A DNA stretch of 63,623 nt, the filler included, from Sandaracinaceae bacterium (GTDB lineage Bacteria > Myxococcota_A > Polyangia > Polyangiales > JADJQN01), in NCBI GenBank assembly GCA_947483975.1. It is 6 parts of 6 records of this genome, joined end to end, with 100 filler letters (N's around TTAATTAATTAA, not from the genome) between each part and the next. Parts side by side here need not be neighbours in the genome. Positions count along the whole stretch, not along the records: positions 21,380 to 31,907 come from CANKOL010000169.1; 5 more parts are not named here. One strand, given 5' to 3'. The position numbers were made by a program, and so were the translations under genes. Below are positions 10,622 to 53,182 of this stretch, in pieces (position 1 is the stretch's first letter; every line of letters starts with the position of its first letter). The notes beneath the pieces are model-generated. The model ran no database searches. It was not told the origin of the DNA and saw only the letters and a program-made list of their open reading frames with translations.

Positions 10622-10721
10622 NNNNNNNNNNNNNNNNNNNNNNNNNNNNNNNNNNNNNNNNNNNNTTAATTAATTAANNNNNNNNNNNNNNNNNNNNNNN
10701 NNNNNNNNNNNNNNNNNNNNN
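10622..10721. other. Artificial contig linker (N44-TTAATTAATTAA-N44)
   Basis: 100-bp spacer carrying TAA stop codons on both strands, repeated five times in the window. Confidence 0.99.
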
Positions 10722-12061: not shown

Positions 12062-12138
<77 letters not shown>

Positions 12139-21279: not shown

Positions 21280-21379
21280 NNNNNNNNNNNNNNNNNNNNN
21301 NNNNNNNNNNNNNNNNNNNNNNNTTAATTAATTAANNNNNNNNNNNNNNNNNNNNNNNNNNNNNNNNNNNNNNNNNNNN
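21280..21379. other. Artificial contig linker
   Basis: N run with TTAATTAATTAA. Confidence 0.99.
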
Positions 21380-21545
21380 TGCCGCCAGGCCGAGTGCCGC
21401 CCGGCCGAGTGCCGCCCGGCCGAGTGATGGACCAATCGTCTTGCGCCGCGACCGGCCGACCGGCGAGCACACCCGCGAGAAACAAGCCGCTCGCGCAGCA
21501 GAGCGCGAGCAGCCTGGCGAGCGTCCGTGCCCGCCGCGGGCTCAC
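21380..21545 (-). CDS. N-terminus of a secreted protein (TRPGG repeats), truncated by contig end
   Basis: GTG overlapping the upstream stop (GTGA), signal peptide, then 15-bp coding repeats. Confidence 0.6.
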
Positions 21546-22534
21546 GGCACGCAGAACGTTCCGTCGCACGACTGCGCCGGGTCCACGCACTCGAGCGCGG
21601 AGCCGGTCATGCCGCACGGCGCCGAGCAGACGTTCGCGCGACAGGTCCCGGGGAAGAGGAAGTCGTCGGTGGTCGAGCCGAGGGGCGCGCACTCTTCGTC
21701 GGCCGAACAGTCCCGGCGCTGCCACGCCGCGAAGAACGTCGTGCAGGAGGTGATGAGCGGGAGACAGTCGCTCGTCGTCGCGTCACAGGCGGTCCCTTGC
21801 GGGCACGAGCCATCGCTCGCGCAGCGCGCGACGCAGACCCGCTCGAGCGGGGTGTCCCGCTGCAGGCAGCGCGTCTCGAACGTCCCGATCGCGCCGCGGC
21901 AGTCGACGTCGAGTTTGCACGGCGCGCACTGCGCCGGCACGAACGAGCGGCACACGCCGTAGGCCACGTCGCAGACGGGCGTCGCCGCGCCGCAGTCGTC
22001 GCTCGTGCGGCACTCGACGCACGTCCCGGTGCGCGGGTAGCAATAGGTCCCGCCGGAGCAGATCACGTCGGCGCAGGGGTCGATCACGCCGAGGTCGGGC
22101 GGGCCCATATCCGGGCGCGGCGTCGTGCGCGTGACGCACACTCCGTGGGTGCACTGCTCGCCCGCGGTGCAGGCGTCGTCGTTGGCGCAGCCCGCGTAGC
22201 AGTGCCCGAGCAGACAGACCTGCCCGGTCGCGCAACCGCTGCCGAGCGCGGCGCGCGCCCCGCCGGTGCCGCCATCAGTCGGCGCTCCCCCACCGTCCGC
22301 CGCCGGACCACCGTCCGACATCAGCCCGCCGCCGTCCCGCGCCGGACCGCCGTCCGACATCAGCCCGCCGCCGTCCGTCGTCGGCGCTGGCTCGTCCGAG
22401 ATGCACTCGATGCCGAGGTCCCGCGGAGTCGCGGGGAACGTCGGCAGATCCTCCCCGCAGCCGAGGAGCCCGACGAGCGGCAAAGCCAGGAAGAACAGGG
22501 AAGCGAGAAGTCCGAGGAAGTGGGCGCGCGCCAT
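21542..22534 (-). CDS. Cys-rich lipoprotein with DGG linker repeats
   Basis: MARAHFLG..LLGC lipobox, duplicated DGGGLMSDGGPA linker, many C-x(n)-C modules. Confidence 0.8.
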   Translation of the reverse strand: MARAHFLGLLASLFFLALPLVGLLGCGEDLPTFPATPRDLGIECISDEPAPTTDGGGLMSDGGPARDGGGLMSDGGPAADGGGAPTDGGTGGARAALGSGCATGQVCLLGHCYAGCANDDACTAGEQCTHGVCVTRTTPRPDMGPPDLGVIDPCADVICSGGTYCYPRTGTCVECRTSDDCGAATPVCDVAYGVCRSFVPAQCAPCKLDVDCRGAIGTFETRCLQRDTPLERVCVARCASDGSCPQGTACDATTSDCLPLITSCTTFFAAWQRRDCSADEECAPLGSTTDDFLFPGTCRANVCSAPCGMTGSALECVDPAQSCDGTFCVP

Positions 22535-22601
22535 GGTCCCGGAATCTAACACGACGACCGCGCATTGCGCGGACGACGGCAGCCGATACCCTACGGCCCC
22601 C

Positions 22602-23423
22602 ATGCCCCACGTCCACGCTGGTGCGCTCCTCGAGCGCGCCCCCGGCCCGCGGTACCTCGCGCGCCTCCGCTTCGCCGAGGTCGCGCTGCGCGCTCCTCTC
22701 CCCCGCCCCGCCACACTCACCCGCTGGCGCGCGGCGCTGCCCGAAGGCTTCGTCCTTTCGCTCGTCGCGCCCAAGACGTCCGTCGTCTCCGCGCGCGGGC
22801 CGCTGCGCTTCGATGACGCGCTCGAGGCGGGCTTCGCTTGGCTTCAGGCGTCGGCCGACGCGCTGAAGGCACAGTTCGTCGTCGTCCCGACGCCCGCGAG
22901 CCTGACGACGGGCCAGCGCGATCGCGATCTGCTCGCCGCCTACGTCGAGCGTCTCCGCGCGCACGCCCCCACCCGGCAGATCGTGTGGGCCCCGACCGGT
23001 CTCTGGGAGCCCGACGCCGCCCAGGTCTTCGCCAAGCACCTCGGCATCCTCTGCGCGTTCGATCCCCTCGAAGCGCCCGCCCCCGACGATCCGGTCATCT
23101 ACGCGCGCCTCGAGGCGCTCGGCGGCCGCCAGCGCTTCGCGGATCCGCTCCTGCGCGACGTCTCCGAGTTGCTCGACGCGAGCGACGCCGCCGACGCGTA
23201 CGTCGCGATCGCCTCGCCGCAGTCATTCCAGCAGGCGAGCCGCCTCGCGCAGATCGCGAGCGACGCACCCCTCGCGGGCAGCGCAGGCGTCGTCGAGGGC
23301 GAGGACGCGCTCGAGGACGACGAAGACGAGGACGGCGACGAGGACGGCGACGACGACGAAGACGACGACGAAGACGACGAAGACGACGACGACGACGACG
23401 ACGACGCTGACGACGGGAGCTGA
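22602..23423 (+). CDS. Divergent DUF72-like protein with poly-Asp/Glu tail
   Basis: TLTRWRAALPEGFVLSLVAPK, VVPTPAS, AFDPL and IYARL pattern. Confidence 0.65.
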   Translation: MPHVHAGALLERAPGPRYLARLRFAEVALRAPLPRPATLTRWRAALPEGFVLSLVAPKTSVVSARGPLRFDDALEAGFAWLQASADALKAQFVVVPTPASLTTGQRDRDLLAAYVERLRAHAPTRQIVWAPTGLWEPDAAQVFAKHLGILCAFDPLEAPAPDDPVIYARLEALGGRQRFADPLLRDVSELLDASDAADAYVAIASPQSFQQASRLAQIASDAPLAGSAGVVEGEDALEDDEDEDGDEDGDDDEDDDEDDEDDDDDDDDADDGS

Positions 23424-23425
23424 CG

Positions 23426-24853
23426 CTGGACCCCGTCGGAGCGCTCGGCGCGCTCTGCGGGGCGCTCGTTCGGCGGGTCGACGCCCTCAGCGACCGAGTG
23501 CTCGCGCTCGGCTTGGACGTCGGCTGCACGCTCGTCGTCGGCACGGCTCGCTCGGCGCGGGGCGTAGGGCTGATCAGCGCGCGAAAGAAGGGCAGCAGCC
23601 CAGCGAGCGCCCTCGCCAACCACCTGCGCCCGCACCTCGAGGGCGCGATGCTCACCGACGCGCGCGTGCAAGAGTCGACGCTCCTGCTGTCGTTCGCGGG
23701 CACCGGAGCAGCCGCGACGCTCGCCTGCGCGCTCGAGGGCACGGATGGCGCCCTCGCGCTGCTGGATCCGTCGGGGCTCGTGCTCGTGACGACCTCGCCC
23801 CGGGCGCACCCGCTCGGCGAGCCGTTCGCCGCCGCCGCCGCGCGCGCGCCCCTCGCCTTGCCCCAATCGCTCGCCGAGCTCGAGGCGTCGGGCGAGGCGC
23901 TCCTGCGCGCGCACGCGCTCGCCAACCTCGACGCCCGGCGCCGCGCCCTCGAGCGGGCCGTGCGCCGTGGGCTCGAGCGCGCGACGCGTCGGCTCGACGC
24001 CATCGGCCAAGACCTCGCCGCGAGCGCCGAGGCCGGTACGCTGCGGATGCGCGCTTCGCTGCTGCTCGCGCACGCGCGCGAGGTCGCGGACGACGCCACC
24101 GAGGTTCGGCTCCTCGACGAGACGTCCGAGGTGCCCGTCGTGCACATCGTTCCGCTCCCGCGCGAGCACGGCCGACCGAGCGGTCCCCGCGCCGCGATCG
24201 AGCTCGCACAGAAGCTCTTCGTCCGCGCGCGCAAGCTCGACACCGGCGCGCGCATCGCGAGCGAGCGCCGCACCCGCACCCTCGAGGAGCGCGCACAGCT
24301 CGCCGCTCTGCTCGAGCGCGTGCTCCTCGCGATGGACGAACGCGCCCTCGGATCCCTCGCCGCCCAAGCGCACGCGCTCGGCGTCGTCGGCGCGCAGAGC
24401 TCCCTGACGGCGCGCGCGGACCTCTCCGAGAAGAAGCGCCGCGCACGCCCGGAGGAGCGCGTCCCGTACCGCCGCTTTCTCGCGACGGGCGAACGCCCGG
24501 TGCTCGTCGGGCGCGGCGCCGCCGACAACGACGCGCTCACGCTCCGGCACGCCCGCTCGCAGGACCTCTGGCTCCACGCGCGCGGCGTTCCGGGCGCGCA
24601 CGTCGTGGTCCCGCTGACCCGCGGCGAGGTCTGCCCGCCGGAGCTGCTGCTCGACGCCGCGACCCTCGCCGCCCACTTCAGCGACGCGCGCGGTGAGCCG
24701 CTCGTCGAGGTGCAGCACGCCCCGCGGCGCTACGTGCGCAAGCCGCGCGGCTCCGCGCCCGGCGCCGTCCTCGTCGACCGCGAGAAAGTGCTCGCCCTCC
24801 GCCTCGAGTCGGCTCGCCTCGCCAGGCTGCTCGCGCGCGAGTCGCTGACCTAG
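23426..24853 (+). CDS. NFACT family protein (RqcH/FbpA-like) with NFACT-R domain
   Basis: AQKLFVRARKL, VLVGRGAADNDALT, DLWLHARGVPGAHVVV, AATLAAHFS, YVRKPRGSAPGAV. Start is CTG 23426 or GTG 23498. Confidence 0.88.
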   Translation: MDPVGALGALCGALVRRVDALSDRVLALGLDVGCTLVVGTARSARGVGLISARKKGSSPASALANHLRPHLEGAMLTDARVQESTLLLSFAGTGAAATLACALEGTDGALALLDPSGLVLVTTSPRAHPLGEPFAAAAARAPLALPQSLAELEASGEALLRAHALANLDARRRALERAVRRGLERATRRLDAIGQDLAASAEAGTLRMRASLLLAHAREVADDATEVRLLDETSEVPVVHIVPLPREHGRPSGPRAAIELAQKLFVRARKLDTGARIASERRTRTLEERAQLAALLERVLLAMDERALGSLAAQAHALGVVGAQSSLTARADLSEKKRRARPEERVPYRRFLATGERPVLVGRGAADNDALTLRHARSQDLWLHARGVPGAHVVVPLTRGEVCPPELLLDAATLAAHFSDARGEPLVEVQHAPRRYVRKPRGSAPGAVLVDREKVLALRLESARLARLLARESLT

Positions 24854-24897
24854 CTCGCCGGCGTCGCGCCGGAGGCGGTGCGCCTTCGTCGCGCCCC

Positions 24898-24938
24898 AAA
24901 TAGGAACGTCCCAGTGGCGAAGCCTCTGGGACGTCCCT
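24898..24938 (-). terminator. Terminator-like hairpin
   Basis: AGGGACGTCCCAG...CTGGGACGTTCCT followed by ATTT on the minus strand. Confidence 0.6.
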
Positions 24939-25373
24939 CGCGCTGTCTGACCCTAATGGGGGCCGCGACCTGCGCGCCATCTTTTGTCTTACCGCTCGGT
25001 GCGCCCAGTCCTGTCCTTGGAGGACTGGCCCGAGCCCCGAGGCACTCGCGGAAATGACCCAGCGAGCGCCACGGGCGAGGCGAAACCAGCTGCCAGCCAG
25101 CACTTCGCTGACTTGCGACCGAGCCAGCACCTCGCTGGCCCACGGCCGACCCAGCTTTTCGCTGGGCCACAGCTACCGGCCAGCACCCCGCTGGCTCACC
25201 GCTGGCTCAGCATATGGCTGTCCAGCAGTGCCGCCCCCTCCGCTATCCTCCGACACGACCCCCTGCCGGGCGCCGTGCGGGCCGCGGTTCCAACCTCGGC
25301 GACCATGAGGGTCGCCAAAGTCACCCCACGAGAGTCTGAACGAGCCCGAACACTCCGCGAACGAGCGGGGTGA
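24898..25373 (-). ncRNA. Candidate structured RNA or long 3' UTR downstream of the histone-like gene
   Basis: About 10 hairpins, most stem mismatches resolving as G-U only on the minus strand; ends in a terminator-like stem followed by ATTT. Confidence 0.5.
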
Positions 25374-25721
25374 TCAGGTGCTCGAAACCGGCGGCACGCC
25401 GAACACTTCGGCAGCCGGCTTCTTGGCGGCGGCCTTCTTCGCGGGCGCCTTCTTGGCGGCCGGGGCTGCCTTCTTGGCGGCCGGGGCTGCCTTCTTGGCG
25501 GCCGGGGCTGCCTTCTTGGCGGCCGGCTTCTTGGCGGGGGCGGCCTTCTTGGCGGGCGCCTTCTTGGCCGGGGCGGCCTTCTTGGCGGGCGCCTTCTTGA
25601 CGGCTGCCTTCTTGGCGGGCGCCTTCTTGGCCGGAGCGGCCTTCTTGGCGGGCGCCTTCTTGGCGGCTACGGGCTTCTTCGCTGCTACGGGCTTCTTCGC
25701 GGGGGTCTTTGCCTTGGCCAT
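25374..25721 (-). CDS. Histone H1-like Lys/Ala/Pro-rich protein
   Basis: 115 aa of AKKAPAKK repeats. GAGGAGG RBS upstream. AT-rich upstream region 25760-25920. Confidence 0.85.
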
Positions 25722-26019
25722 GATGTCTTCCTCCTCTGGCGGTGTATGCCAGACGATGTGAACCGTATTGTCACGTCACGTCACCTGTCAAGCCGGAACA
25801 ACCATAATTTATATCTAACTTAGCGCTCTTTGGACACTGAGTGAACGTCGACATTTGCAAGTAGCTGAAATCGCACAAAAAAAACATATGGCGATCCAGA
25901 CCCGCGGAAGTGTTGAGAAAGCACGATCCGGAGCCCTCCGCTGATCGCGTTGACACCCGGGAAGGGCCGCTCTACGGTCGGCTCGCCTCGTGGGGAGGCG
26001 GCGAGCCAGGAGTGACGAG

Positions 26020-26877
26020 ATGACGATGCTTCGAGTCGGGACGGTAGGAACTGTCGGAGCGTTTGCGCTCCTCACGGTGGGGCTCTTGGGCGCGGGCTGC
26101 GGGCCCTCCGAGGCGCAGATCGCCGCTGAAAACCGGGCTCACGAGCTCGAGCAGCAGCTGGCGGACGCGAACACGGCCCGGCAGGGGCTCGACCGCCGCC
26201 TGACGGAGCTGACGGCGACGAACGAGGCCATGACGGAGCGCCTGCGCGCCCTCGGCCAGAACGTCGAGGGGCTCCAGTCCCACGTCCAGGGGCTGCAGTC
26301 GGACCTCGACCGCACCCAGCGCGCCCTGACCGAGCTACAGGAGCGCGAGCGCCAGGCGCAGGCGCGCCTCGCCACGTTCCGGCAGATGGTCGAGCGCTTC
26401 CGCGCGATGATCGCCAGCGGCCGGCTGCGCGTCCGCATCGTGCGCGGCCGAATGGTCGTCGAGCTGCCGGACAACATCCTGTTCGAGTCGGGCGAAGCCG
26501 ACCTCAAGGACGCGGGTCAGGCTGCGCTCAGCGAGATCGTCGAGGTCCTCAAGACGATCCCGGGCCGCGACTTCCAGGTCGCCGGACACACGGACAACGT
26601 GCCGATCCACTCGCGCCGCTTCCCGTCCAACTGGGAGCTCTCGACCTCGCGCGCCGTCGCCGTCACGAAGTTCATGATCGAGCGCGGGCTCGAGGGCAGC
26701 CGCCTCTCCGCCGCGGGCTGCGCCGAGATGGCGCCCGTCGCCCCCAACGACACCCCCGAGGGCCGCGCGCAGAACCGACGCATCGAGATCATCTTGCTCC
26801 CGAACCTCGACGAGCTGCCGGACCTCTCCTCGCTCGAGGGCCCGCCGGCCCCGGCTCCCGCGACGCCCGCTCCCTGA
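26020..26877 (+). CDS. OmpA/MotB-family lipoprotein with coiled coil
   Basis: Lipobox GAGC, ILFESGEA, AGHTDNVPI, NWELSTSRA, RAQNRRIEI. AGGAG RBS. Confidence 0.9.
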   Translation: MTMLRVGTVGTVGAFALLTVGLLGAGCGPSEAQIAAENRAHELEQQLADANTARQGLDRRLTELTATNEAMTERLRALGQNVEGLQSHVQGLQSDLDRTQRALTELQERERQAQARLATFRQMVERFRAMIASGRLRVRIVRGRMVVELPDNILFESGEADLKDAGQAALSEIVEVLKTIPGRDFQVAGHTDNVPIHSRRFPSNWELSTSRAVAVTKFMIERGLEGSRLSAAGCAEMAPVAPNDTPEGRAQNRRIEIILLPNLDELPDLSSLEGPPAPAPATPAP

Positions 26878-27124
26878 GTAGGCTGTGCGTTCTGATCGGG
26901 CGAGACGAGCGTCTCGCCTGGACTCCCCCTCCCCGGTCCGGTACGCTCGGCCCGCTTCTGCGCTCCCCAGCGCTTCCGCTCTCCGCGAGAAACGGTCTCG
27001 CGCGGGAATACGGATCACCGGGGCAGGGTTCGAGGCCGTCCTACCGGACATGTCGACCGGCGGGGCGTCAAGCGCGACTTCGGAACGCCTCGTGCGTCGC
27101 CGGGGTCGGTGGAGGAGTCCTTCC

Positions 27125-27631
27125 ATGCAGGCTCGTAGCGAGAAGCTCTTCAAGGTCGGTGACAAGGCCGTCTATCCCGCGCAGGGAGTGGCCGAGGTGA
27201 TCTCGATCGAAGAGAAGGACATTGCCGGGAACCGGCAGCAGTTCTACGTCCTTCGAATCCTCGACACCGACCGCAAGATCATGGTCCCGGTCAACAACGC
27301 CAAGTCCGTTGGGCTGCGCGCGCCGATCACCGAGACCGAGATCCGCGAGATCTTCGAGATCCTCAAGGAGCAGACGGTCGCCTTCGACAACCAGACGTGG
27401 AACCGCCGCTACCGCGGGTTCATGGACAAGATCAAGACCGGCAGCGTCTTCGATGTCGCCGAGGTCATGCGCGACCTCTACCGCCTCAAGGCGGAGAAGA
27501 GCCTGTCGTTCGGGGAGCGCCGTATGCTCGAGACCGCCCGCTCCTTGATCGTCAAGGAGATCGCCGTCGCGCGCCGCAAGCCCGAAGAGAAGGTCCGCGC
27601 CGAGATCGAGAAGATCTTCGAAGCGAACTGA
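27125..27631 (+). CDS. cdnL: CarD-family RNA polymerase-binding factor (CdnL type)
   Basis: FKVGDKAVYPAQGV, TWNRRYR, LSFGERRML. 168 aa with no HMGA-like tail. GGAGGAG RBS. Confidence 0.88.
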   Translation: MQARSEKLFKVGDKAVYPAQGVAEVISIEEKDIAGNRQQFYVLRILDTDRKIMVPVNNAKSVGLRAPITETEIREIFEILKEQTVAFDNQTWNRRYRGFMDKIKTGSVFDVAEVMRDLYRLKAEKSLSFGERRMLETARSLIVKEIAVARRKPEEKVRAEIEKIFEAN

Positions 27632-27658
27632 GCTCGGAGCCCGGCGCCCGTGACCGCG

Positions 27659-27692
27659 CCCTCCCCCGGCCCTCTCCCCTCGGGGGGAGAGG
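27659..27692. repeat. REP-like palindrome (CCCTCTCCC..GGGAGAGG family)
   Basis: CCCTCCCCCGGCCCTCTCCCCTCGGGGGGAGAGG. Relatives at 45766, 46260 and 60062. Confidence 0.7.
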
Positions 27693-27901
27693 CGCTGGAA
27701 GCGGTGAGGGCGCTGGAAAAAGCGGGCGCTCGAGCGCGACGGTGGGTTGAAGAGTTGGGGTAGGCAGCGCGGGTTGTCGGCGGCGAGCCGCGAGCAAGCG
27801 CTCGGCACCGAAGTGAGAGCAAGCGCAAAGCGCGCTGGCGCGCATGCCCCCGTGCGGTGTACGCTGCGGCCTGGCTTCGGCTACGAGGCCAGTCGTCTTC
27901 T

Positions 27902-27986
27902 TTCCGGCCTAGGATTTCCCTCGGCTTCGTTCCGGCCCTGGGTTCTGCCTCGGCCTCGTTCCGGCCTGGGGTTCCCCTCGGCCTCC
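27902..27986 (+). repeat. 28-29-bp tandem hairpin repeat x3 in the RNase G/E upstream region
   Basis: TTCCGGCCTAGGATTTCCCTCGGCTTCG / TTCCGGCCCTGGGTTCTGCCTCGGCCTCG / TTCCGGCCTGGGGTTCCCCTCGGCCTCC. Confidence 0.75.
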
Positions 27987-28107
27987 GCGGCCTCCGCCTC
28001 GTGCGGCGGGTCGCTTCACGCAGATTTCGTGACGCCTCGGCGTCGCTCCAATTCCGTCCGTGCGCGCGCCCCGGAGTGCCCGCCCGGGCCACAGCTTCCA
28101 GGTTCGG

Positions 28108-29631
<1,524 letters not shown>

Positions 29632-29632
29632 C

Positions 29633-30034
29633 GTGCCTGACCAAGCGAAGCCAGCGTCGGCGGGGCGACCCGCCGGCCAAGACGGGGAGACGCAGGCCGA
29701 GCTCGACGCCGCAGAGGCGAGCCGCCTGGAAGAGCGCGTCACGATCAACAAGGAGTTCGAGTCCTTCGACGCGTTCATCCACGAGTACGTGACCAACATC
29801 TCGCGCTCGGGCGTCTTCGTGAAGTCCAAGCAGCCGCTCCCCGTCGGCACGCGGGTGAACCTGAAGTTCACGGTGATCATGGACGACATCGAGACGATCG
29901 AGGGCGTCGGCGAGGTCGTCCGCGTCGAGAGCGATCCGCCCGGGATGGGCGTCGTCTTCACGGAGCTGAGCCAGTACTCGAAGCACCTGATCGATCGGCT
30001 GCTCACGGTGCCGCGCGCGGCCGCTGAGCCCTGA
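29633..30034 (+). CDS. PilZ-domain protein (myxobacterial TIGR02266 type)
   Basis: RLEER, YVTNISRSGVFV and PGMGVVF motifs. Confidence 0.85.
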   Translation: MPDQAKPASAGRPAGQDGETQAELDAAEASRLEERVTINKEFESFDAFIHEYVTNISRSGVFVKSKQPLPVGTRVNLKFTVIMDDIETIEGVGEVVRVESDPPGMGVVFTELSQYSKHLIDRLLTVPRAAAEP

Positions 30035-30046
30035 GCGCGCACCCTC

Positions 30047-30523
30047 GTGGGCGTGATCGATCGCTTTGCGCAGCTCGCCCGAGGGACCCTCGTGAGCCTC
30101 ACGGACCGCACCTTCGGACGCACGCAGAAGCCGCTCGCTGAGCTCTCGGACTCTGAGCTCGAGGAGGAGCTGATCCGTCGCCGCCGCGCGCGCGCAGCCA
30201 AGCGCAGCGGCGGCGCGAGCGCCGAGGAGGCCAACGCCGAAGAGGCGCGCGAGCGCGTGGCGAAGGACGAGCCGAAGCCGAGCCCCGCGAAGGAGCCCCC
30301 GCGCTCGCCGCAGGAGCAGCAGCTGACGCAGTACTACGCGAACCTCGAGCTGAGCCCGGGCGCGACGCTCGACGAGGTGCGCAAGGCGTACCGCGACCTG
30401 ATGAAGCGCTACCACCCCGACAAGCACCTCGGCGATCCCGAGCGCCACAAGGCGGCGACCGAGCTCGCGCAGAGCCTGACGCGCGCGTACACAGCGCTCG
30501 TCGAGACGCTCGGCAAGAAGTGA
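30047..30523 (+). CDS. J-domain protein
   Basis: C-terminal YYANLEL..VRKAYR..YHPDK. Confidence 0.88.
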   Translation: MGVIDRFAQLARGTLVSLTDRTFGRTQKPLAELSDSELEEELIRRRRARAAKRSGGASAEEANAEEARERVAKDEPKPSPAKEPPRSPQEQQLTQYYANLELSPGATLDEVRKAYRDLMKRYHPDKHLGDPERHKAATELAQSLTRAYTALVETLGKK

Positions 30524-30610
30524 GTCGCTCCGCGCGGCGGTAGGCGTCGATTCGCCGTCCTCTCGAGCCCCGACGCAACCGCTCTGCTCCCCGCCCGATG
30601 ACGTCGCCAC

Positions 30611-31681
30611 ATGGCCGACGTCCAGCCGCACGACGCGTTGATGAAGGTGCTGTTCGGCACGCCGGAGCGCGCCATCGCGCTGCTGCGCGGGGCGCTGCCG
30701 CCTGGCGTCTGCGCTGCCCTCGATTGGCCCACGCTGCGCCAGCTGCCGACGGACCTCGTCGACGACGACCTGCACGCGCGAGTGCCGGACTTCCTCTTCG
30801 CGGTCATGCCGCGCTCGGACGCGAACGCCTCTGTCGATAGGCACGCAATCAACGCTCGCGCCTCCAAATCCGCGCGACCAGAAGAGGCCTATGTCGCCGT
30901 GCTCCTCGAGCACCAGAGTCGCCAGGCGAAGTGGATGGCCCTGCGCTTGCTCGGCGGCACCGTGCGCCTCCTCGAGCGCGCGAGGGGTAAGTCGCCGCGG
31001 AGCCTGCCCGTCGTGCTGCCCGTCGTGCTCCATCACGGGAAGCGCCCGTGGACGGCGCCGCAGGACCTCGATGCGCTCGTCGCCGTCCCGCCGCCGCTCG
31101 CGGCGTTCGTGGCGCAGAGCGGCCTCCGCTTTCGCTACTTCGTCCTCGACCTCGCGACGCTCGACGACGACGCGCTCGCTGCGCTGGCGCCCGACGTCTT
31201 CGCGCTGCTCGCCCTCGCCGCGCTGCGCGACTCCCGCACTGCGCCGGACCTGACGACGCTGCTCTTGGGCCTCGCGGGCTTCCTCGAGCGCTACCGCCGC
31301 GACGGCGACCTGCGCGCGGCCCTCGACCTCGTGCTCCGCTATACTGCCCACGTACGCAGAGCCGAAGCGGCCGACCTGCGCAGGATCATCGAGGTCTCGG
31401 GCGCGCTGCCGCCGCTGATGGAGGACGACATGAAGACGATCGCGCAGGCGCTGCAGGAGATGGGGGAAGTGCGGGGAGAGGCGCGAGGAGTCGTCCTCGG
31501 GGAGGCGCGAGGAGAGGCGCGAGGCCTGTCGCGCTCACTGCTCCGCGTCGTCGAGCGTCGCTTCGGCGCCGTGCCCGAAGCGCTCCGCGCGCGCATCGCC
31601 TCTGCCGACGTGGAGACGCTCGAGCGCTGGATCGACCGCGCCATTTCCGTCGAGCGCGCGGAGGACGTGCTCGACGGGTGA
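30611..31681 (+). CDS. Rpn family (YhgA-like) PD-(D/E)XK nuclease with DUF4351-like C-terminus
   Basis: HDALMK, LDWPTL, PDFLFAV, LLEHQS, LPVVLPVVLHHG..W, GEARG repeats, RRFG..ADVETLERW. Confidence 0.92.
   Translation: MADVQPHDALMKVLFGTPERAIALLRGALPPGVCAALDWPTLRQLPTDLVDDDLHARVPDFLFAVMPRSDANASVDRHAINARASKSARPEEAYVAVLLEHQSRQAKWMALRLLGGTVRLLERARGKSPRSLPVVLPVVLHHGKRPWTAPQDLDALVAVPPPLAAFVAQSGLRFRYFVLDLATLDDDALAALAPDVFALLALAALRDSRTAPDLTTLLLGLAGFLERYRRDGDLRAALDLVLRYTAHVRRAEAADLRRIIEVSGALPPLMEDDMKTIAQALQEMGEVRGEARGVVLGEARGEARGLSRSLLRVVERRFGAVPEALRARIASADVETLERWIDRAISVERAEDVLDG
31430..31681 (+). CDS. Putative nested small antitoxin (RpnS-like), 83 aa, in frame within the Rpn gene
   Basis: GGAGG (31420-31424), 5 nt, ATG, giving MKTIAQALQE. 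Confidence 0.65.
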   Translation: MKTIAQALQEMGEVRGEARGVVLGEARGEARGLSRSLLRVVERRFGAVPEALRARIASADVETLERWIDRAISVERAEDVLDG

Positions 31682-31786
31682 GGGGTTGGCGGGGCGCGGG
31701 CTCCTCGCGCACTCCTCGTGGCCTCGCTGTTGGGGCCCAGGCTCCCCAACGCAACTCTTGCTCGACGCGCCCGATGACGTCGCCAC

Positions 31787-31907
31787 ATGGCCGACGTCCA
31801 GCCGCACGACGCGTTGATGAAGGTGCTGTTCGGCACGCCCGAGCGCGCGATCGCGCTACTGCGCGGGGCGCTGCCGCCTGACGTCTGCGCTGCGCTCGAT
31901 TGGCCCA
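31787..31907 (+). CDS. Second tandem Rpn gene, truncated by contig end
   Basis: 31769-31907 nearly duplicates 30593-30731 (about 5 differences by eye). Confidence 0.88.
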
Positions 31908-32007
31908 NNNNNNNNNNNNNNNNNNNNNNNNNNNNNNNNNNNNNNNNNNNNTTAATTAATTAANNNNNNNNNNNNNNNNNNNNNNNNNNNNNNNNNNNNN
32001 NNNNNNN
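31908..32007. other. Artificial contig linker
   Basis: N run with TTAATTAATTAA. Confidence 0.99.
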
Positions 32008-42533: not shown

Positions 42534-42633
42534 NNNNNNNNNNNNNNNNNNNNNNNNNNNNNNNNNNNNNNNNNNNNTTAATTAATTAANNNNNNNNNNN
42601 NNNNNNNNNNNNNNNNNNNNNNNNNNNNNNNNN
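42534..42633. other. Artificial contig linker
   Basis: N run with TTAATTAATTAA. Confidence 0.99.
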
Positions 42634-53082: not shown

Positions 53083-53182
53083 NNNNNNNNNNNNNNNNNN
53101 NNNNNNNNNNNNNNNNNNNNNNNNNNTTAATTAATTAANNNNNNNNNNNNNNNNNNNNNNNNNNNNNNNNNNNNNNNNNNNN
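53083..53182. other. Artificial contig linker
   Basis: N run with TTAATTAATTAA. Confidence 0.99.

Follow-up and report, generated by a model that had tools for sequence, protein, structure and literature searches.

Bacterial 3′ untranslated regions (UTRs) can be the source of separate RNAs, as with CpxQ, or can be long and regulatory themselves, as in hilD, and the small RNAs derived from them usually consist of two hairpins, the second of which is a terminator. Other 3′ regions carry palindromic repeats of the REP/BIME type, which stabilize mRNA. Among histone-like bacterial proteins, chlamydial Hc1 is subject to a separate small RNA, IhtA, that acts on the start of the Hc1 mRNA, and lysine-rich proteins of low complexity show no sequence preference when they bind nucleic acids. 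To our knowledge, structured bacterial RNAs of several hundred nucleotides (nt) outside the known families are uncommon and mostly chance finds. Described regulators derived from 3′ UTRs include OppZ and CarZ (PMC7398697) and GlnZ (PMC9731577). A literature search covering titles and the starts of abstracts, with most subscription journals outside it, returned no RNA element behind a myxobacterial H1-like gene. Here we describe such an element in a Sandaracinaceae bacterium (assembly GCA_947483975.1), where it follows the stop codon of a lysine-rich, H1-like gene in a window of 63,623 nt, the whole stretch of DNA that was analyzed.

The gap between the H1-like gene and a convergent NFACT-like gene holds a real, conserved structured RNA element of a family absent from Rfam, and the element is probably transcribed. 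The reading we favor, held with about even confidence, is that it forms a ~475-nt structured 3′ UTR of the H1-like mRNA. The host is an uncultured lake bacterium of a kind known solely as lake metagenome bins. Its genome (G000) has 71% G+C and is 81% complete, and the window consists of six contigs of this bin joined by runs of N (window positions 10622 to 10721, 21280 to 21379, 31908 to 32007, 42534 to 42633, and 53083 to 53182), so that neighborhood across the joints is without meaning. The locus lies within a single contig, C169 (window positions 21380 to 31907).

Conservation and covariation among relatives

A BLASTN search of the gap against 40 relatives gave two short, chance-level matches away from the locus and failed even within the genus, and homologues were located via gene order instead. 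An NFACT-like gene convergent with a lysine-rich gene was present at 18 of 29 relatives' loci across the taxonomic order, with gaps of 83 to 731 nt, and a simple scan placed a terminator-like site 164 to 256 nt past the stop codon on the H1-sense strand at 7 of 19 loci (opposite strand, 3 of 19). The shared gene order and these terminator-like sites indicate that long 3′ regions are usual for the H1-like gene. A metagenome scan gave three loci, L034, L035, and L036 (45% identity), the last of which was dropped because no lysine-rich gene stands behind its NFACT-like gene; a scan of genome contigs gave a single, distant relative (L042). Gene order is shared, and the gap is homologous, in L034, in L035, and in a genome of the same genus, G001, whose gap aligns mainly across the last ~95 nt. 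The NFACT-like proteins of L035 and L034 are 87% and 70% identical to that of the window.

Identity to the window within the 3′ domain of the gap is 88% for L035 and 86% for L034, and within the 5′ part 76% and 78%, against 54% and 56% at the four-fold degenerate sites of the NFACT-like gene next to it. Coding signal is absent from the gap: G+C by codon phase is 0.73/0.69/0.66, unlike the pronounced phase patterns of the NFACT-like gene (0.82/0.55/0.93) and the H1-like gene (0.63/0.61/0.90), and two open reading frames (ORFs) inside the gap match no Pfam family. In the 3′ domain, close relatives differ by indels of 1, 2, and 4 nt, which rules out conservation of a reading frame there.

The consensus structure of the four sequences (RNAalifold) holds 111 pairs in 14 helices, with 90.2% of cells paired. 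Changes on both sides occur at 23 of the 111 pairs, compared with 8.4 ± 2.3 after shuffling (0 of 500 shuffles reached 23) and with 3 to 6 in a control in which pairing partners were slid, and these compensatory changes fall outside the repeat array described below. The conserved structure that a preliminary description, made from the single sequence, had led us to look for is present in the homologous gaps of L034 and L035 and partly in that of G001.

Folding and strand preference

At the Rfam 15 gathering score the gap has no match, and the only match in the window is a tRNA (12062 to 12135). Relaxing the threshold to E ≤ 10 adds six chance-level matches with a best E of 1, the best scoring 15.8 to 18.7 bits against gathering scores of 37 to 100. 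The proposal that this is an undescribed RNA stands on that result.

Compared with dinucleotide shuffles (n = 100 per strand), the gap folds better on both strands, in keeping with the dense structure first noticed from the sequence. On the minus strand the fold reaches −303.5 kcal/mol against −259.8 ± 6.4 kcal/mol in shuffles (z = −6.79; 0 of 100 as good), and on the plus strand −258.9 against −224.1 ± 6.7 kcal/mol (z = −5.21; 0 of 100 as good). The single-sequence strand preference is modest, because both strands fold well, and is partly a matter of composition, the minus strand of the gap having 203 G and 158 C; a five-unit tandem array of ~130 nt inflates the score on both strands. The minus-strand minimum free energy (MFE) structure of the element has 19 helices, 18 of them of at least 4 bp, and G-U pairs, 21 in total, are present in 12 of those 18.

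Comparison among relatives separates the strands more clearly. For the three close sequences, the RNAalifold consensus energy is −186.4 when the minus strand is folded and −142.2 when the plus strand is, and in the union of the pairs predicted on either strand, 46 cells read as G-U and 10 as A-C on the minus strand. The original argument, that imperfect pairs read as G-U on the minus strand but as A-C on the plus, is partly compositional when applied to one sequence but becomes convincing with the relatives included. From this pattern we infer an element favoring the minus strand, which would fit the orientation of the H1-like gene.

Architecture of the element

The coordinates of the element, its parts, and the flanking genes are given in Table 1. 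The stems named in the preliminary description were all recovered on the minus strand, namely the stop-codon stem and the hairpins at 25319 to 25295, 25073 to 25038, 25030 to 25003, and 24938 to 24902. Its picture of about 10 stems tiling the gap needs revision insofar as the stems, though present, do not form one fixed structure: five belong to a variable insertion, and the first hairpin is not conserved. That hairpin, at the stop codon (stem UCACCCCGC/GUGGGGUGA), is specific to this genome, and the first ~45 nt past the H1-like stop vary among relatives.

Table 1. Features of the H1-like/NFACT-like locus, in window coordinates
Feature	Positions	Strand	Evidence or remarks
Whole structured RNA element, putative 3′ UTR, stop codon to end of U-stretch	24898-25373	−	Fold z, helices, homology, covariation
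Variable leader including stop-codon hairpin	25328-25373	−	Differs in L035 in sequence and length; mostly missing in L034
P1 5′ arm, GGGGUGA	25321-25327	−	Long-range helix with 25077-25083
P2 hairpin	25295-25319	−	10 pairs, 6 with changes on both sides
P3 long hairpin, then purine-rich conserved block	25237-25287	−	Helices 4 and 5: 18 pairs, 4 double changes
Variable insertion, five tandem ~27-nt units	25095-25225	−	TRF, repeat family D1, relatives
P1 3′ arm, UCGCCUC	25077-25083	−	Partner of 25321-25327
P4 hairpin, conserved 12-nt loop region UGGGUCAUUUCC	25036-25075	−	Helices 8 and 9
P5 hairpin, outer and inner helix, loop CCAAGGAC	24994-25035	−	Helices 10 and 11: 14 pairs, 5 double changes
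A-rich single-stranded linker	24977-24993	−	Unpaired in consensus; RNA-library contigs stop here (24986)
P6 hairpin, nearly invariant C-rich apex GGCCCCCAUUAGGG	24939-24976	−	Helices 12 and 13, 93-94% of cells paired
Terminator-like 17-bp hairpin (24938-24902), then UAUUU to 24898	24898-24938	−	Helix 14, 98.5% of cells paired
Gap between convergent genes, non-coding	24854-25373		
NFACT-like gene	23498-24853	+	Pfam NFACT-R_1 and NFACT_N, above cut-off
H1-like gene, 115 amino acids, AKKA/PAKKA repeats, lysine-rich	25374-25721	−	ORF; RNA element after stop codon
Putative promoter and 5′ UTR of H1-like gene	25722-25830	−	Read from sequence

The long-range helix P1 (consensus helix 2) has 7 pairs with 92.9% of cells paired and varies through wobble changes only. 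It is preferred over a competing long-range pairing of the MFE structure, 25336-25324 with 24961-24949, which was dropped because L034 and L035 do not preserve it, a U-A pair having become C-A in them. In P4, a U-A pair has changed on both sides to C-G in L035, and there are G-U cells whose plus-strand counterparts would be A-C. P6 is the most conserved block and is recognizable in G001 as well. The terminator-like hairpin is kept in all four aligned sequences, and the U-stretch that follows it exists on the minus-strand side only.

An independent noncoding RNA gene with its own promoter behind the H1-like gene would also account for an element that is large, multi-domain, and conserved in sequence and structure as free-standing RNAs are, and the same gap in other families does hold other conserved elements. 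We nevertheless find this improbable. A promoter scan of the gap gave no promoter-like site, no conserved promoter for a separate transcript is evident there, and the region just past the stop codon is variable. Moreover, two terminator scans found no U-stretch-bearing, terminator-like hairpin between the stop codon and P2, and contigs from RNA libraries start inside the coding region and continue into the gap.

The tandem-repeat insertion

Tandem Repeats Finder (TRF) describes the array inside the element as 3.8 copies of period 27 with 70% matches. Four of its units are hairpins of the form (C)CAGC-GNNNN-GCUGG, with loops GGGGU, GAAAA, GAGGU, and GAAGU, and the fifth has the loop CAUAU. There are five copies in the window, three in L035, and none in L034, and in the consensus fold the array sits within the domain closed by P1. 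In our own reading of these sequences, the array would be a tolerated expansion segment of variable copy number and not part of the core structure.

A similar unit of 28 nt is arrayed at the end of contig C98 (G000:C98:15030-15108), and clusters of the hairpin pattern occur at three places only, on C98, on C169 (this locus), and on C207. An nhmmer profile of the five units matched this locus alone at E < 0.1 and gave nothing elsewhere below an E of 0.6. A dispersed, REP-like family was accordingly rejected, the unit finding nothing convincing elsewhere and not being high-copy.

Intergenic tandem repeats abound in the genome as a whole, with 174 TRF rows for periods between 22 and 34 nt that are not multiples of three. 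Besides the C98 array, examples lie at C119:8441-8613, at C333:3020-3225, and at window positions 27893 to 27985, and one recurrent intergenic repeat family has the core CAACCTTGGTCGG. Several of the repeat arrays at contig ends probably broke the assembly there.

Repeats of this kind bear on the reading in which the gap has no RNA function and is a GC-rich spacer with a tandem array and a shared terminator, its structure arising from composition and palindromic repeats. That reading would explain why both strands beat their shuffles in a genome full of intergenic tandem repeats and why the central hairpins vary in copy number and resemble the C98 array. It would not explain the 86 to 88% identity of the 3′ domain beside neutral sites at 54 to 56%, compensatory changes that lie outside the array, a wobble pattern specific to one strand, or the coverage of the gap by RNA-library contigs, and we regard it as largely refuted and highly improbable.

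RNA-library contigs and a variant strain

Six RNA runs hold 10 to 19% of the sampled words of the stretch, and four were compared by contigs (X13, X14, X17, and X18), the first three of which represent three separate studies. Between 16 and 39% of the words were present in the lake metagenomes X10 to X12, X15, and X16. X14 gives a 494-nt contig (depth, 27.7) that spans 24986 to 25440 plus 36 nt further into the coding region and differs from the window by 32 letters and 3 gaps across ~455 nt. X17 gives a 439-nt contig of the same variant (25041 to 25440 and beyond; depth, 125), and both contigs are continuous from the H1-like coding region into the gap. The X13 contig, of 172 nt, is identical to the window from 24986 to 25157, and X18 contributes nothing but 31-nt fragments, lying where the coding region ends in repeats, and a single 34-nt fragment at 24827 to 24860. 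The X13, X14, and X17 contigs cover none of 24600 to 24985, which includes the 3′ end of the NFACT-like gene as well as P6 and the terminator, and uncovered parts count as no evidence. The continuity agrees with the earlier suggestion that a noncoding RNA or a processed 3′ UTR is transcribed together with the gene for the basic protein, in which the strand and the co-transcription are what we infer.

The variant strain seen in X14 and X17 also probes the proposed structure, carrying 18 substitutions and no indels across 388 nt of gap sequence. Placed on the consensus structure, 13 of these substitutions lie in unpaired columns; among the five in paired columns, four keep the pair, all through a minus-strand G-U, and none breaks one. 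Two of the substitutions lie in P4 and keep its pairing on the minus strand only.

The X13 and X14 contigs, from two studies, both end exactly at 24986, within the A-rich linker and with no loose end. The coincidence hints only weakly at an RNA end at that position, and an assembly effect between strains is possible. A cut there would suit another explanation, in which the main product is a trans-acting RNA of ~88 nt (24898 to 24985) that is cut from the mRNA and pairs via its C-rich apex, the rest of the UTR being its precursor. The last ~90 nt are indeed the most conserved and the only part aligning well with G001, the contigs of both studies stop just before this piece, and its two hairpins, of which the second is terminator-like, have the usual form of a small RNA. 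We consider it unlikely that this is the main product: the 88-nt piece itself was not seen among the RNA-library contigs, Hfq was found in none of four genomes of the family, P2 to P5 upstream are also under selection that a mere precursor would not need, and the shared contig end may reflect assembly, for example a graph branch between strains. If the terminal piece were nonetheless a released regulator, it would be a 3′ UTR-derived RNA in a lineage where no Hfq was found.

The H1-like gene and its upstream region

The H1-like protein scores below cut-off against both of the families it resembles, with E = 0.0015 and 19.1 bits against Pfam HC2 (cut-off, 40), a compositional match, and 33.9 bits against NCBIfam hist_H1_lk_Burk (cut-off, 80). 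We therefore use "H1-like" as a label for composition and not for family membership. The protein is a probable major nucleoid protein. Its C-terminal tail (25374 to 25409, minus strand) differs between the window and the variant strain by 9 substitutions plus three insertions of 1 nt within 36 nt; the non-coding gap, with 18 substitutions in 388 nt between the same two strains, is far less divergent.

Upstream of the gene we noted TTGACA, an 18-nt spacer made of (GTGAC)x3, and TACGGT, with an AT-rich stretch further upstream. By our own reading TTGACA is a near-consensus −35 box; the promoter scan reported none in this region by its own criteria. A 5′ hairpin (UCUGGC...GCCAGA) with compensatory changes lies just ahead of the ribosome-binding site, and ~80 nt of the upstream region are almost identical in L034 and L035. 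Pairing between the 5′ and 3′ UTRs was predicted (RNAduplex) at sites that differ between the window and L034.

Distribution in the order and a motif of other families

With a covariance model of the 3′ domain (R1), the window, L034, and L035 score 205 to 212 bits, and G001 scores 118 bits. Among 151 genomes sampled from the taxonomic order, R1 found the locus in two, the window's own and G001, with no match at the H1 locus in the other 149. Weak matches off the locus were seen at G020:C13 (E = 0.004), which is not the NFACT-like locus of that genome, and at G033:C112 (E = 0.007), where only the terminator-like hairpin is matched (model positions 151 to 183).

Other families have a different feature in the corresponding place. 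The motif TCGATTGA(C/A)A is invariant on the H1-sense strand between the lysine-rich and convergent NFACT-like genes of 10 genomes from five other families, six of the genomes belonging to one family (loci L008, L009, L014, L021, L047, L048, and L077 to L080). In that family a covarying hairpin flanks the motif and a terminator follows. Alignment of the UCGAUUGACA-motif regions across families matches the motif alone, with the flanking hairpin added within one family. In the order, 6 of 40 examined matches to the pattern lie at such loci and the rest elsewhere, and the motif was not found at this locus in the window's own family. The gaps of L009, L011, and L021 contain unrelated tandem repeats between the terminator and the NFACT-like gene, with units of ~17 nt (six copies), ~31 nt (eight copies), and 16 nt (five copies), respectively.

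The tight linkage of gene and RNA, their conservation together, and a UTR longer than the coding region raise the question of whether RNA and H1-like protein are partners, the protein either binding its own UTR for feedback on its synthesis or having the RNA as its titrator or scaffold. Nonspecific binding would leave the invariant loops unexplained, and we give this little credence. In a wider form, the H1-like protein and a 3′ RNA would be a functional pair across this order of Myxococcota-like bacteria, the RNA binding, titrating, or scaffolding the protein or being released as a regulator of nucleoid state. Each lineage would keep its own long, conserved, structured module behind this one gene, with the P1 to P6 fold here and a UCGAUUGA(C/A)A module in the five other families. 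The proposal is speculative and unlikely. If true, the functional pair would be a new kind of bacterial protein-RNA chromatin module.

A model for the putative 3′ UTR and its weak points

Under the 3′ UTR reading, transcription of the minus strand would start at the H1-like gene's own strong promoter and run through the element. P1 would close a 5′ domain made of P2, P3, and the tolerated tandem-hairpin insertion, and the 3′ domain after P1 would consist of P4, P5, the A-rich linker, P6, and a hairpin terminator. Such a UTR may act mainly in cis, its dense 3′ structure together with the 5′-terminal hairpin protecting a very abundant short mRNA from exonucleases and so setting how much nucleoid protein is made. 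Cleavage within the A-rich linker, which we think probable, would leave an mRNA end ~8 nt past P5 and release a fragment of ~88 nt made of P6 and the terminator.

Several observations weigh against this account. The plus strand also folds well (z = −5.21), the terminator-like U-stretch is weak and short and was flagged neither by a strict terminator scan nor by a second, simple one, and on the single-sequence MFE structure half of the eight paired substitutions of the variant strain keep their pair and half break it. Covariation was measured on a small sample, four sequences and one strain variant, and both of its controls are biased, since the consensus structure comes from the same alignment that was scored. 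The contigs cannot give strand, ends, or a single molecule spanning the coding region and the gap, and RNA libraries may contain DNA. Among the genomes searched, the RNA family is confined to one clade of genus rank. Finally, loops and linkers are more conserved in sequence than a mere stabilizer needs, and the invariant loops and linker suggest specific recognition in addition.

That the H1-like gene keeps a long 3′ region across the whole order suggests that the dosage of a histone-like protein is set post-transcriptionally. The element could also be put forward as a definite candidate for an Rfam entry and be probed in relatives that are in culture.

Comparison with known systems

The central 130 nt of the element resemble REP/BIME sequences in being tandem palindromic hairpins of variable copy number in a 3′ region, with a similar unit arrayed elsewhere in the genome (C98). 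Unlike in REP/BIME, the likeness is limited to the insertion and does not extend to the conserved core.

CsrB and RsmZ likewise have repeated hairpins in an RNA of a few hundred nt, and a CsrA gene is present in three of four genomes of the family. The repeat loops here, however, are GNNNN without a conserved GGA and vary among strains, the repeats are absent in L034, and there is no Rfam match. A sponge of the CsrB/RsmZ type was rejected, GGA being not enriched (10 occurrences against 9.7 ± 2.3 in shuffles). A type III antitoxin RNA (ToxI-like) was rejected as well: the repeats follow a basic gene of low complexity, have a convergent NFACT-like gene on their other side, and are absent in L034.

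With 6S RNA the element shares the character of an abundant structured RNA of a few hundred nt, but 6S RNA (RF00013) gives no match at the locus, and the fold is a row of hairpins and not a long rod. Elsewhere, a sub-threshold 6S candidate lies at G000:C388:1287-1400 on the plus strand (36.4 bits; gathering score, 46.4), and candidates in G001 and G002 reach 40.2 bits and 54.6 bits, the latter above the cut-off.

Hc1 and IhtA offer a parallel, in that an RNA-level control governs the synthesis of an H1-like protein in bacteria. The RNA described here differs in being the gene's own 3′ region, and the likeness between the proteins is compositional only.

The element also has features of long regulatory 3′ UTRs and of the small RNAs derived from 3′ UTRs. 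Hfq was found in none of four genomes of the family, in a search whose control was positive in 5 of 14 reference genomes, and, in agreement, Myxococcus xanthus is said to lack Hfq (10.1101/2025.09.11.675593). As in those RNAs, the element lies between a stop codon and a terminator-like hairpin and is most strongly conserved at its 3′ end, the last two hairpins come after an A-rich linker that is single-stranded, and the host gene appears to be strongly expressed. It is unlike them in being much longer, at 475 nt against 348 nt for the coding region before it, in its multi-domain organization, in its closure by a long-range helix, and in belonging to a family where the search gave no Hfq.

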